Positions 7,028 through 44,721 of a stretch of 64,000 nucleotides of DNA are shown piece after piece. The DNA is from Escherichia coli. Its GTDB lineage: Bacteria > Pseudomonadota > Gammaproteobacteria > Enterobacterales > Enterobacteriaceae. Below the pieces are notes generated by a model. That model did no database searches. It was not told the DNA's origin and saw only the letters and a list, made by a program, of their open reading frames with translations. Each line of letters begins with the position of its first letter. The first letter of the stretch is position 1. Where the stretch lies: NCBI RefSeq assembly GCF_044324785.1, contig NZ_CP172127.1. One strand, given 5' to 3'. A program made the position numbers and the translations under genes.

Positions 7028-7774
7028 TTACTGACGGTGGACATTCAGTCCGGCATAGCTTTGGGTAACCGGCATCATTTCCAGGGTATTGATATTGACG
7101 TGAGCAGGCAGCGTTGACACCCACCAGACGGCTTCGCTGACATCTTCTGGCGTCAATGCAACGGTATTTTGATAGGTTTTTTCCGCTTTACCGTCATCGC
7201 CTTTAAAGCGGACATTGGAAAACTCGGTGCCACCCACCAGACCCGGCTCGATGTCGGTGACGCGCACCGCCGTACCATGCAGGTCCGTACGCAGATTCAG
7301 GCTAAACTGACGAACAAACGCTTTCGTCGCACCGTAAACGTTACCACCGGCATACGGCCAGCTGCCTGCCGTTGAGCCAATGTTAATAATATGACCATGA
7401 TTACGTTCAACCATACCCGGTAAGACGGCGCGCGTCATATATACCAGGCCTTTGTTGTTGGTATCAATCATCGTTTCCCAGTCTTCAACGCTGGCTTTAT
7501 GCGCAGGCTCCATGCCCAACGCCAGACCGGCATTATTTACCAGGATATCAATATTGCACCACTCGGCAGGAAGCGATGCCAGCATCTCTTCAATAGCGGC
7601 GCGGTTGCGAACGTCCAGTTGGGCGATATAAAGATTATCTCCCAGTTCGTCTTTTAACTCCTGCAACCGCTCCTGGCGACGGCCAGTGGCGATAACTTTA
7701 TGCCCTTGTTGAATAAAACGACGAGTAATGCATTCACCAAAACCTGCCGTTGCTCCAGTTACTAAAACGATCAT
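7028..7774 (-). CDS. ydfG: NADP-dependent 3-hydroxy acid dehydrogenase (SDR family)
   Basis: SDR with a TGATAGFG cofactor motif; likely start at MIVLVTG (248 aa) rather than the ORF-track Met five codons upstream. Confidence 0.85.
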   Translation of the reverse strand: MIVLVTGATAGFGECITRRFIQQGHKVIATGRRQERLQELKDELGDNLYIAQLDVRNRAAIEEMLASLPAEWCNIDILVNNAGLALGMEPAHKASVEDWETMIDTNNKGLVYMTRAVLPGMVERNHGHIINIGSTAGSWPYAGGNVYGATKAFVRQFSLNLRTDLHGTAVRVTDIEPGLVGGTEFSNVRFKGDDGKAEKTYQNTVALTPEDVSEAVWWVSTLPAHVNINTLEMMPVTQSYAGLNVHRQ

Positions 7775-7910
7775 CTCACTGTTCCTCAACGCTTTTGTGT
7801 GTCAATAACATAGCACGTGATGCTTAAGAGCGGGTAATACTGGTTTGCAAGATTGCACTCCGTTATCAGTAAGCCTACGCTATGGAACACCTCGCGTTCA
7901 GGAGAAGAAA

Positions 7911-9956
7911 ATGACAACAATGAATCCTTTCCTTGTGCAAAGCACACTGCCGTATCTGGCTCCCCATTTTGATCAAATTTCCAATCATCACTATCGCCCG
8001 GCATTCGATGAGGGAATGCAGCAAAAGCGGGCAGAAATTGCTGCCATCGCGCTTAATCCGCAAACGCCTGATTTCAACAATACTATTCTGGCACTGGAAC
8101 AAAGCGGAGAATTACTTACCCGCGTTACCAGCGTCTTTTTTGCGATGACTGCGGCGCATACTAATGATGAATTACAGCGTCTTGATGAACAGTTTTCCGC
8201 TGAACTGGCGGAACTGGCTAATGATATCTATCTGAACGGTGAATTATTCGCGCGGGTAGATGCTGTCTGGCAACGCCGTGAATCCCTGGGACTTGATAGT
8301 GAATCCATCCGCCTGGTGGAGGTCATTCATCAACGTTTTGTCCTTGCCGGAGCCAAACTTGCACAAGCTGATAAAGCAAAATTAAAAGTACTGAATACAG
8401 AAGCTGCGACCCTGACCAGCCAGTTTAACCAGCGGTTACTGGCAGCAAATAAATCCGGCGGTCTGGTTGTGAACGATATCGCGCAGCTGGCAGGAATGAG
8501 TGAGCAAGAGATTGCGCTGGCGGCAGAGGCGGCTCGCGAGAAAGGTCTGGATAACAAATGGCTGATTCCGTTGCTGAATACCACCCAGCAACCAGCGCTT
8601 GCTGAACTGCGCGATCGCGCGACGCGTGAAAAACTGTTCACTGCGGGCTGGACGCGAGCGGAAAAAAATGATGCCAATGATACCCGCGCTATCATTCAAC
8701 GTCTGGTGGAGATCCGCGCGCAGCAGGCGAAACTGCTTGGTTTCCCTCATTATGCCGCATGGAAAATCGCCGATCAGATGGCAAAAACGCCAGAAGCAGC
8801 ACTCAACTTTATGCGGGAAATTGTTCCAGCGGCGCGTCAACGTGCGAGCGATGAATTAGCCTCCATACAGGCGGTTATCGATAAGCAGCAGGGCGGGTTT
8901 AGCGCGCAGCCGTGGGACTGGGCATTTTATGCCGAGCAGGTAAGACGTGAGAAATTCGATCTCGATGAAGCGCAGCTCAAGCCTTATTTCGAATTAAACA
9001 CGGTGTTGAATGAAGGCGTATTCTGGACTGCGAATCAGCTCTTCGGTATTAAGTTTGTCGAACGTTTTGATATTCCTGTCTACCATCCTGACGTTCGGGT
9101 GTGGGAAATTTTTGATCATAATGGCGTGGGGCTGGCGTTATTTTACGGTGATTTCTTCGCCCGTGATTCAAAAAGCGGCGGTGCATGGATGGGCAATTTT
9201 GTTGAGCAATCAACGCTGAATGAAACGCATCCGGTAATTTATAACGTCTGCAATTATCAGAAACCCGCTGCCGGTGAGCCTGCGTTGTTACTCTGGGATG
9301 ATGTCATAACCTTATTCCATGAATTTGGTCATACGCTGCACGGCCTTTTTGCCCGCCAGCGTTATGCCACGCTTTCCGGCACCAACACGCCGCGTGATTT
9401 TGTCGAATTTCCGTCGCAAATCAACGAACACTGGGCAACGCATCCGCAGGTATTCGCTCGCTATGCCCGGCATTATCAGAGCGGGGCAGCAATGCCTGAC
9501 GAACTGCAACAGAAAATGCGTAATGCCAGCCTGTTCAACAAAGGGTATGAGATGAGCGAACTGCTTAGCGCCGCACTTCTCGATATGCGCTGGCATTGCC
9601 TGGAAGAAAACGAAGCAATGCAGGATGTCGATGATTTCGAATTGCGGGCGCTGGTGGCGGAAAATATGGATCTTCCTGCTATACCGCCACGCTATCGCAG
9701 CAGTTATTTCGCCCATATTTTTGGTGGCGGATATGCCGCAGGTTATTACGCTTATCTGTGGACGCAAATGTTGGCCGATGATGGTTATCAGTGGTTTGTT
9801 GAGCAGGGCGGATTAACGCGTGAAAATGGGCTGCGTTTTCGCGAGGCGATCCTTTCCAGAGGTAACAGCGAAGATCTGGAACGCCTGTATCGACAATGGC
9901 GCGGTAAGGCACCTCAGATTATGCCGATGCTGCAACATCGTGGCTTGAACGTATAA
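7911..9956 (+). CDS. dcp: Dipeptidyl carboxypeptidase II (M3 zinc metallopeptidase)
   Basis: 681 aa from MTTMNPFLVQSTLPYLAPHF, with an AGGAGA ribosome-binding site at 7900-7905; HEFGH zinc motif present. Confidence 0.9.
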   Translation: MTTMNPFLVQSTLPYLAPHFDQISNHHYRPAFDEGMQQKRAEIAAIALNPQTPDFNNTILALEQSGELLTRVTSVFFAMTAAHTNDELQRLDEQFSAELAELANDIYLNGELFARVDAVWQRRESLGLDSESIRLVEVIHQRFVLAGAKLAQADKAKLKVLNTEAATLTSQFNQRLLAANKSGGLVVNDIAQLAGMSEQEIALAAEAAREKGLDNKWLIPLLNTTQQPALAELRDRATREKLFTAGWTRAEKNDANDTRAIIQRLVEIRAQQAKLLGFPHYAAWKIADQMAKTPEAALNFMREIVPAARQRASDELASIQAVIDKQQGGFSAQPWDWAFYAEQVRREKFDLDEAQLKPYFELNTVLNEGVFWTANQLFGIKFVERFDIPVYHPDVRVWEIFDHNGVGLALFYGDFFARDSKSGGAWMGNFVEQSTLNETHPVIYNVCNYQKPAAGEPALLLWDDVITLFHEFGHTLHGLFARQRYATLSGTNTPRDFVEFPSQINEHWATHPQVFARYARHYQSGAAMPDELQQKMRNASLFNKGYEMSELLSAALLDMRWHCLEENEAMQDVDDFELRALVAENMDLPAIPPRYRSSYFAHIFGGGYAAGYYAYLWTQMLADDGYQWFVEQGGLTRENGLRFREAILSRGNSEDLERLYRQWRGKAPQIMPMLQHRGLNV

Positions 9957-9967
9957 ACACCACCAAT

Positions 9968-9997
9968 GGCTGGCCTGGAGAAATCGCCAGGCCAGCC
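9968..9997. terminator. Perfect hairpin between dcp and the CinA-like remnant (possible bidirectional terminator)
   Basis: ggctggcctgg-agaaatcg-ccaggccagcc inverted repeat; no strong T-run on either side, so strength is uncertain. Confidence 0.4.
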
Positions 9998-10000
9998 TGG

Positions 10001-10099
10001 TTAGAGTAGTAATTGCAGCAGCTGGGCGAGGGCAAACCTCACCGCTAATGCTAATACCGTTTCGCAGTCGCCAGCAAAATTACTTTTTTTGTATACCCT
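10001..10099 (-). pseudogene. ydeJ: CinA-like (competence/damage-inducible C-terminal domain) ORF remnant, possibly a truncated ydeJ
   Basis: Minus-strand frame ending ...SNFAGDCETVLALAVRFALAQLLQLLL*, which resembles CinA-family C-termini. No start codon and no conserved CinA N-terminal motif within the roughly 320 bp available before ydeI. Confidence 0.3.
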
Positions 10100-10320
10100 T
10101 CCGTTATAATAATTTTCAAATTTATAAATCTGATTGTTCTGAAATATGTTTAAGACTCTTTAATCTTCTTCTTACTTTAGTGAGTAAAATTCTCTGAATA
10201 TTTGACAGTTAGTTGCCTGATTTTAAATGCCTTATAACAATTGGCAGTATTCTTATTTGTCAATTATAAAAATAGCAACCAGACTTAATAAGTCAAACCA
10301 AACGCAATTAAGGAGTCAGT

Positions 10321-10713
10321 ATGAAATTTCAGGCCATTGTATTAGCAAGTTTTCTTGTCATGCCTTATGCGTTGGCAGATGACCAGGGCGGATTAAAACA
10401 GGATGCAGCGCCACCGCCGCCTCATGCAATAGAAGATGGCTATCGTGGAACCGATGATGCAAAAAAAATGACCGTTGATTTCGCAAAAACCATGCACGAT
10501 GGCGCTTCGGTTTCACTACGCGGTAATTTGATTTCTCACAAAGGAGAAGACCGTTACGTTTTTCGCGATAAGAGCGGAGAAATTAATGTTGTTATTCCTG
10601 CGGCGGTCTTTGATGGACGAGAAGTTCAGCCGGACCAGATGATCAACATTAGCGGTAGTCTGGATAAGAAAAGCGCGCCGGCCGTCGTTCGGGTCACTCA
10701 TTTGCAGAAATAA
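10321..10713 (+). CDS. ydeI: Periplasmic OB-fold (BOF/YgiW family) stress protein
   Basis: 130-aa ORF with a signal peptide [19 protein letters not shown] and a BOF-family C-terminal region. Confidence 0.8.
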
Positions 10714-10967: not shown

Positions 10968-11858
10968 ATGATCAAGAAGACAACGGAAATTGATGCCATC
11001 TTGTTAAATCTCAATAAGGCTATCGATGCCCACTACCAGTGGCTGGTAAGTATGTTTCACAGCGTAGTCGCGAGAGATGCCAGTAAGCCAGAAATAACGG
11101 ATAACCATTCTTATGGACTGTGCCAGTTTGGTCGGTGGATTGATCATCTGGGGCCACTCGATAACGATGAATTACCTTACGTTCGGCTAATGGATTCTGC
11201 CCATCAACATATGCATAACTGTGGTCGGGAATTAATGTTGGCTATTATTGAAAATCACTGGCAGGACGCGCATTTCGACGCCTTTCAGGAAGGGTTGCTT
11301 TCTTTTACTGCGGCATTAACCGATTACAAAATTTATTTGCTGACGATCCGTAGCAATATGGATGTTTTGACGGGATTGCCGGGTCGTCGGGTTCTTGATG
11401 AATCCTTTGATCATCAGTTACGCAACGCTGAGCCTCTGAATCTTTATTTAATGTTGTTGGATATTGACCGATTTAAATTGGTTAATGATACCTACGGGCA
11501 TTTAATCGGCGATGTAGTATTACGCACCCTGGCAACTTACTTAGCCAGTTGGACGCGCGATTACGAAACGGTTTATCGCTACGGTGGCGAAGAATTTATC
11601 ATTATTGTCAAAGCGGCTAATGATGAAGAAGCATGTCGTGCAGGTATCAGAATTTGCCAGTTAGTCGATAACCATGCCATCACACATTCTGAAGGGCATA
11701 TCAACATTACCGTGACTGCAGGTGTGAGTCGCGCATTTCCTGAAGAGCCTCTGGATGTGGTCATTGGAAGAGCGGACCGGGCAATGTATGAGGGTAAGCA
11801 AACCGGAAGAAATCGCTGTATGTTTATTGACGAACAAAATGTGATTAACCGAGTTTAA
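10968..11858 (+). CDS. dgcZ: Zinc-regulated diguanylate cyclase (CZB + GGDEF)
   Basis: 296-aa ORF MIKKTTEIDAILLNLNKAIDAHYQWL...; CZB zinc-binding domain and a GGEEF active-site motif (YRYGGEEFIIIV). Confidence 0.9.
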   Translation: MIKKTTEIDAILLNLNKAIDAHYQWLVSMFHSVVARDASKPEITDNHSYGLCQFGRWIDHLGPLDNDELPYVRLMDSAHQHMHNCGRELMLAIIENHWQDAHFDAFQEGLLSFTAALTDYKIYLLTIRSNMDVLTGLPGRRVLDESFDHQLRNAEPLNLYLMLLDIDRFKLVNDTYGHLIGDVVLRTLATYLASWTRDYETVYRYGGEEFIIIVKAANDEEACRAGIRICQLVDNHAITHSEGHINITVTAGVSRAFPEEPLDVVIGRADRAMYEGKQTGRNRCMFIDEQNVINRV

Positions 11859-11902
11859 GCTCCGTTTAACATTCATTGAGAAAACTGATGCTACTGTGTC
11901 AA

Positions 11903-12001
11903 CGATCCGTTATCAGTGCAGGAAAATGCCTGTTAGCGTAAAAGCAAAACACAAATCTATCCATGCAAGCATTCACCGCCGGTTTACTGGCGGTTTTTTT
12001 T
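11903..12001 (+). ncRNA. mgrR: Candidate small RNA in the dgcZ-mgtS intergenic region (position expected for MgrR); boundaries approximate
   Basis: Non-coding stretch ending in a strong intrinsic terminator (caccgccgg-ttta-ctggcggt followed by T8 at 11993-12001). Location divergent from mgtS matches the known mgrR locus. The 5' end is not determined. Confidence 0.45.
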
Positions 12002-12007
12002 CGCCGT

Positions 12008-12049
12008 CATAAAAATCAGGCCCCTTGTACACAACTGTAACAAGGGGCC
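12008..12049 (-). terminator. Terminator hairpin for mgtS
   Basis: ggccccttgtacacaactgtaacaaggggcc hairpin with a flanking A-run on the + strand (T-run for the minus transcript). Confidence 0.5.
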
Positions 12050-12076
12050 GGTTAGGTGAGGGATTATCTCCGTTCA

Positions 12077-12172
12077 TTAGTCATCCCATTTGTGGCTGAA
12101 ATACGCGGCCAGAAAACCAGAAAATAAAATTATTCCCAGTACGGCCATAAAAACATTCATATTACCCAGCAT
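12077..12172 (-). CDS. mgtS: Small inner-membrane protein MgtS (YneM), 31 aa
   Basis: Hand translation of the minus strand gives MLGNMNVFMAVLGIILFSGFLAAYFSHKWDD*. It is below the ORF-track size cutoff; single TM helix. Confidence 0.8.
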   Translation of the reverse strand: MLGNMNVFMAVLGIILFSGFLAAYFSHKWDD

Positions 12173-44441: not shown

Positions 44442-44721
44442 GATATGGGGTTTGGTCGTTGTTAATGAGCACGACAATCATGACCGCCAACGACTGGATT
44501 CTTCCTTGGTTTATGTTGGTGCGCATAATGTATATTATGTTAAATGGAGTTTGAGTGATGCGGAGTGATTTTCCGGTCGTCGTTATTACTTCAGGGTTCC
44601 AGAACATAAAGCCTCTCCTCTTTCATAATTGGCCTGTGCATACCGGATATAGCCTGGCTGATATGCAGGTTTGCCGTTTGCCGCATCTTCTCAGCGTTGA
44701 AGAGTCAGGCTGGCAAACCGC

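Follow-up and report, generated by a model that had tools for sequence, protein, structure and literature searches.

The minus-strand coding fragment that lies between dcp and ydeI in the window (the whole 64,000-nucleotide stretch of DNA analysed here) is almost certainly what is left of ydeJ, a defunct 3′ piece of this single-domain CinA/PncC-family paralogue, produced by a clean 475-bp deletion that took most of the gene together with its start codon. The short form is a common, lineage-marking gene-decay allele that is already known and flagged in public annotation. The fragment was correctly spotted in the first-pass annotation of this DNA, but it is an ordinary pseudogene remnant and in itself matters little. 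Here, we describe the remnant, the deletion that produced it, its distribution among complete E. coli genomes, and the alternatives to simple gene loss.

Genomic setting

The window covers chromosomal DNA of the Escherichia coli type. Up to ydeI it carries the last part of the Qin prophage, ydfJ, ydfI, ydfZ, rspR, ydfG, dcp, the ydeJ remnant, and ydeI, followed on the 3′ side by dgcZ, mgtT/mgtS, ydeE, eamA, marBAR, and marC, and onward by the lsr, hipBA, and ydeQRS fimbrial genes. The order dcp–ydeJ–ydeI, which the first-pass annotation had given with some hesitation, is the one annotated at intact E. coli loci, including that of K-12. Coordinates of the features around the remnant are collected in Table 1.

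Table 1. Features of the ydfG–dgcZ region, in window coordinates.
Feature	Position	Strand	Basis
ydfG	7028-7789	minus	
dcp (peptidyl-dipeptidase Dcp)	7911-9956	plus	ORF list and RefSeq annotation of collinear genomes
Strong hairpin separating the dcp and ydeJ stops (convergent genes)	9962-10001		RNA fold
ydeJ pseudogene remnant: last 25 sense codons and stop, preceded by a junction codon	10001-10081	minus	
Deletion junction (10079/10080)	10079-10081		alignment, exact left-match extension, megablast match ends
AT-rich ydeJ–ydeI divergent spacer, native by alignment, carrying the ydeI upstream region	10082-10320		composition and collinear alignment
ydeI (YdeI-family periplasmic OB-fold stress protein), 130 aa, intact	10321-10713	plus	
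dgcZ	10968-11858	plus	

The dcp gene is intact and convergent with the ydeJ remnant; its start was mapped from position 7900 of a collinear genome (L005). The product of ydeI matches Pfam BOF (PF04076, E=5e-41) and NF007471 (E=6e-78), the latter over its full length (1-130/130). The hairpin between the two convergent stops has a core stem of 11 bp, in which 9968-9978 pairs with 9987-9997, and a folding energy of -28.8 kcal/mol (z = -4.75), which none of 200 shuffled sequences equalled. Alignment places it in both the intact and the deleted forms of ydeJ. A simple scan did not call an intrinsic terminator at this hairpin because it is not followed by a T-run.

The closest complete E. coli genome is that of strain 19KM1831, which is collinear with the first 24 kb of the window in one piece at 98.8% identity. 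Across 24 kb, 98.8% is the highest identity to the window that any complete RefSeq E. coli genome reaches, so the source lineage seems to be poorly represented among complete genomes. Relative to 19KM1831, the window is without a block of about 7.8 kb beside hipA (at about 44539-44546 of the window; L006 14134-21911 in 19KM1831), which encodes a LysR regulator, aldo/keto reductases, and a quinol monooxygenase, among other genes. The window also holds two full-length Rfam matches: RF01407 (STnc560, an Hfq-binding sRNA) at 11870-12083 on the plus strand (282 bits), downstream of dgcZ and opposite in strand to the mgtT/mgtS region that it overlaps, and RF02111 (IS009) at 748-946 on the plus strand (227 bits), inside the tail-fibre-assembly/pinQ region of the Qin prophage.

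Anatomy of the ydeJ remnant

The minus-strand frame that closes at complement(10001-10003), its stop codon, has the translation ...SNFAGDCETVLALAVRFALAQLLQLLL, also given as ...YKKSNFAGDCETVLALAVRFALAQLLQLLL, ahead of the stop, and the intact 172-aa YdeJ of a reference genome ends in ...VMHFAGDCETVLALAVRFALAQLLQLLL. When the frame ends YKKSNFAGDCETVLALAVRFALAQLLQLLL and VMHFAGDCETVLALAVRFALAQLLQLLL are compared, the final 25 residues of the remnant and of intact YdeJ are the same. For the resemblance to a CinA/PncC-family C-terminus noticed on first reading, a protein search with the remnant translation returned a match to NCBIfam NF002972 at positions 138-172 only; it is significant by its E-value (E=2.8e-9), but its score of 36.9 bits lies far below the 201-bit cutoff, as expected for a fragment. 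The translation has no match to Pfam PF02464 at E<=1. Intact YdeJ matches Pfam CinA PF02464 (E=9.2e-48, 162 bits, cutoff 23.5), the NCBIfam equivalog NF002972 (E=3.2e-99, 330 bits, cutoff 201), and PncC_domain TIGR00199 (E=1.5e-60). Of a complete CinA domain of about 155 residues, only the last 25 are left in the remnant.

Two further observations of the first-pass annotation, the missing start codon and the missing N-terminal CinA motif, also hold. No ORF of at least 20 aa with an ATG, GTG, or TTG start ends at the remnant stop (10001), and 5′ of the N/H codon the frame enters the AT-rich spacer, where it meets several in-frame stops. The segment that encodes the N-terminal ...LTTAESCTGG... 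falls within the deleted 475 bp. The remnant is thus not a translatable gene, and since it has no start codon, no promoter-proximal region, and no catalytic-domain core, it cannot make a CinA-domain protein; it is presumably neither transcribed nor translated. The remnant proper, as listed in Table 1, takes up a part of the 9957-10320 originally described, and 9957-10000 is the spacer between the stops of dcp and ydeJ.

The 475-bp deletion and its junction

Alignment of window positions 9940-10340 with the intact-ydeJ genome RM14721 (L003), in which ydeJ occupies 1801-2319, gives one clean 475-bp gap with collinear sequence on either side. Together with the family matches, this gap bears out the suggestion that a ydeJ-like CinA-family gene had suffered a 5′ deletion, although the missing length is 475 bp and not the 200-300 bp or so that had been anticipated. 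The deleted block corresponds to L003 1880-2354 or 1881-2355, with 1 nt of microhomology (the T at 10080). The left-hand match is exact through window position 10080, and megablast matches of intact genomes stop at query base 31, which is the same position. The loss covers 440 of the 519 coding bp, with the GTG start, and 35 bp on the upstream side; the 3′ end survives as 79 bp. Alignments with K-12, O157:H7, and RM14721 place the remnant in the orthologous position, between convergent dcp and divergent ydeI with collinear DNA on both sides, and ydeJ is present at this position in reference genomes. No evidence in this analysis contradicts a deletion.

A microhomology-poor illegitimate deletion is the mechanism that we infer. 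A single ancient illegitimate-recombination event with so little microhomology would have removed ydeJ codons 1 to about 147, the start codon, the ribosome-binding region, and the 35-bp upstream spacer, and would have joined the last 79 bp of ydeJ directly to the ydeJ–ydeI spacer. The AT-rich spacer left over still acts as the upstream region of intact ydeI. The deletion allele would then have been passed on vertically through a large part of E. coli, and in one sub-lineage a second, nested deletion would later have removed the 5′ part of ydeI as well. A single origin of the 475-bp deletion is likely because the junction is identical in its carriers and is completely linked with the spacer haplotype.

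Allele classes in complete E. coli genomes

Population counts were made over 5,426 complete E. coli genomes. The 3′ end of dcp was matched in 5,417, the 475-bp segment in 3,618, and the contiguous 61-bp junction in 1,799 (33%) when searched with 11-base words at E<=1e-8, strict enough to shut out 30-base half-matches. Together the last two counts make 5,417, with no remainder. The 5′ region of ydeI is found in 4,371 genomes, and taken together these four counts define three alleles: an intact form (about 3,618 genomes, 67%), a form like that of the window, with ydeJ deleted but ydeI complete (about 753 genomes, 14%), and a doubly deleted form lacking parts of both ydeJ and ydeI (about 1,046 genomes, 19%). 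Three nested alleles in these proportions at one locus make a clean lineage marker. An independent 120-bp spacer probe gave the same split, with 4,364 full-length matches, 3,610 of them at 80-90% identity, and about 1,047 genomes that match only the first 42 bp of the probe. With megablast, 151 genomes were 100% identical over the full length of the 61-bp junction probe, a number that is an artefactual undercount produced by the 28-base seed and by low-complexity masking around the T-run. An exact 22-mer spanning the junction had zero matches in species-representative genomes, a weak scan in which an exact match is required.

The doubly deleted allele is carried by UTI89, ATCC 25922/Seattle 1946, Nissle 1917 (EcN), and ST131 strains, which belong to phylogroup B2. 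The second deletion is about 504 bp long, is equivalent to window positions of about 10123-10621 (the corresponding region in L004 and L009), and has 5 nt of microhomology; it removes the promoter and 5′ coding part of ydeI, of which a 90-bp remnant stays. Because of this nesting, the ydeJ deletion would have come first and the ydeI deletion second.

Direction of change

Intact ydeJ is, on the evidence of outgroup synteny, the ancestral state at this position, because outgroups with conserved gene order retain the full gene. The arrangement ydfG–dcp–ydeJ(172 aa)–ydeI–dgcZ is kept both in L012 (GCA_020783085.1), which is 88.4% identical to the window, and in L015, which has about 74% DNA identity to the window across ydfG–dcp. 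The YdeJ of L015, 66% identical in protein, falls in a cluster named E. fergusonii; this locus is much more divergent than would be expected for E. fergusonii against E. coli. Orthologues under the name YdeJ also occur in Salmonella, Citrobacter, Klebsiella, Enterobacter, and elsewhere. The reverse course, in which the short form would be ancestral and ydeJ would have been inserted in other E. coli lineages, has next to no chance of being correct. Nothing specific speaks for it beyond the fact that the deletion form is common, and an insertion cannot leave an in-frame 3′ end of 25 identical codons without a start codon; full genes in the same synteny at both outgroup distances and orthologues across the four genera named above weigh against it as well, so that the anatomy of the remnant and the outgroup synteny already refute a gain. 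A 3′ gene fragment without a start leaves loss as the only route.

An independent, larger deletion is present in Escherichia sp. MOD1-EC7003 (L010, NZ_PTRE01000081.1, about 10376-10601; 94% identical), where all that is left of ydeJ is about 44 bp at its 3′ end and ydeI, most of dgcZ, mgtS, and ydeE are gone. This separate event suggests that the dcp–ydeJ–ydeI region is prone to deletions. It also made MOD1-EC7003 unusable as an outgroup for the spacer. A degenerate Dcp C-terminus pattern found one locus only in the species-representative genomes, that of MOD1-EC7003; the Dcp C-terminal pattern, which is present in the window, had no E. coli match in that collection.

The AT-rich spacer

The tract upstream of the remnant is as AT-rich as first described, with 27% GC over 10082-10320 against 47% for the whole window, and the homopolymer at 10084-10090 is a T7 run. 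The idea that it represents a replaced promoter region finds no support, however, since the tract is collinear from end to end with the spacer of intact E. coli (with 1-2-nt indels) and with that of the outgroup L012. Judged by this alignment, it is the normal ydeJ–ydeI spacer and neither foreign nor replaced DNA. The spacer measures 275-277 bp in intact genomes and is 35 bp shorter here, on the ydeJ side, and the window retains ydeI with 239 bp of its upstream region.

That foreign or rearranged AT-rich DNA stands in place of the 5′ part and promoter of ydeJ is very improbable, even though one stretch of the spacer is unusually divergent. Over the 80 bp to the right of the junction (10080-10159), the deletion and intact forms differ by 11 fixed differences, a divergence of 15% as against about 5% in the flanks; in the same comparison of four deletion-form with three intact-form sequences, the values are 1.5% for dcp, 5% for the remnant, 5% for the distal spacer, and 1.9% for ydeI. 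The proximal-spacer haplotypes are also almost perfectly bimodal, with 1,797 genomes at >=95% identity, 3,610 at 80-90%, and 6 between, and they are fully linked to ydeJ deletion status. Both observations speak for a replacement, but the tract aligns base-for-base with the intact and L012 spacers, with no more than 1-2-nt indels in the intact ones, which already largely refutes it. Moreover, polarisation with L012 assigns about 7 changes to the deletion lineage and about 4 to the intact lineage and leaves 1 ambiguous, and L012 has itself changed at several positions within these 80 bp. Because the changes fall on both lineages, a locally fast-evolving spacer suffices, and on this polarisation the 80-bp stretch is best described as fast-evolving orthologous spacer, not as imported DNA or a replaced promoter. 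It probably comprises the ydeJ promoter and leader, which would no longer be constrained once the gene was gone; the slight excess of 7 over 4 on the deletion lineage, which is not significant, fits relaxed constraint on a useless ydeJ promoter. Mutagenic repair at the breakpoint was considered as a source of the divergence and rejected, since the changes polarise onto both lineages.

Consequences of the deletion

Whether the junction created a new functional element, either an ORF or an altered regulatory input to ydeI, can be weighed against several searches, and such an outcome appears highly unlikely. A junction-spanning ORF of 49 aa with an ATG start (10048-10197, plus strand) does exist mechanically, but it shows no sign of coding and no visible Shine-Dalgarno sequence, lies just past the dcp hairpin, and in about 1,046 genomes is interrupted by the second deletion. 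On the regulatory side, RcdA binds the ydeI–ydeJ spacer of K-12 and affects ydeI expression there in one medium (PMC3535384), and the sole RcdA-box-like 9-mer of the intact spacer, with one mismatch, sits in the deleted 35 bp. A one-mismatch match to a box with seven specified bases is nevertheless expected by chance, and the search for the box (TTGTnnACA) returned one-mismatch matches only and is uninformative. Promoter-like matches numbered 2 against 1.5 expected from shuffles, a promoter/terminator consensus scan of the region found nothing above the shuffled expectation, and Rfam gave no match in 9900-10400 even at E<=1.

A broader proposal is that dcp–ydeJ–ydeI–dgcZ is an Escherichia deletion hotspot and that loss of YdeJ might alter supercoiling homeostasis or ydeI regulation, as opposed to neutral decay. 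We regard it as unlikely. Three deletions are seen at the locus, namely the 475-bp deletion, the nested 504-bp deletion, and the independent larger one in MOD1-EC7003, and the loss of YdeJ is fixed in a third of E. coli, including major extraintestinal pathogenic lineages. Loss of YdeJ appears to be tolerated: a third of the species does without the gene in nature, which is relevant to the proposed supercoiling role of YdeJ/RdsA and to ydeI stress phenotypes.

Comparison with known ydeJ loci

YdeJ of E. coli K-12, a CinA-only paralogue, reportedly lacks NMN deamidase activity and carries substitutions in active-site blocks (PMC3855486). In Salmonella, ydeJ has its own supercoiling-sensitive promoter, and its deletion leads to more negative supercoiling; the gene was renamed rdsA (PMC7387798). 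RefSeq names YdeJ orthologues (L003 1801-2319; L007 1152-1670) '2-oxo-tetronate isomerase', a name that comes from NCBIfam NF002972. The corresponding activity, EC 5.3.1.35, is assigned in E. coli to b2739/YgbM (PMC12506659, PMC12821715), and our literature search found no link of YdeJ to EC 5.3.1.35; the product name may be misapplied to this CinA/PncC-domain protein.

The K-12 gene (b1537; UniProt P31131) and the remnant share an orthologous locus, flanked in both cases by a convergent dcp and a divergent ydeI. The final 25 codons encode the same residues, and over the 79 bp that were kept the DNA identity is about 95%. The window differs from K-12 in being without 440 of the 519 coding bp, the start codon, and the 35 upstream bp, and hence without a CinA domain. 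In every deletion-form genome inspected (L001, L002, L004, L005, and L009), RefSeq/PGAP has a pseudogene feature at the remnant, described as 'incomplete; partial in the middle of a contig; missing N-terminus'. These 81-bp pseudogenes (such as ABS748_RS14275, M5S63_RS11985, AACG44_RS03195) are the same feature with the same junction and flanks, and nothing of substance sets the window apart from them, although over 24 kb it is about 1.2% off the nearest complete genome. The allele of UTI89, ATCC 25922, Nissle 1917, and ST131 has the same ydeJ junction as the window, followed by the same 42 bp of spacer; in those strains ydeI is truncated, whereas the window is without the second deletion and its ydeI is intact.
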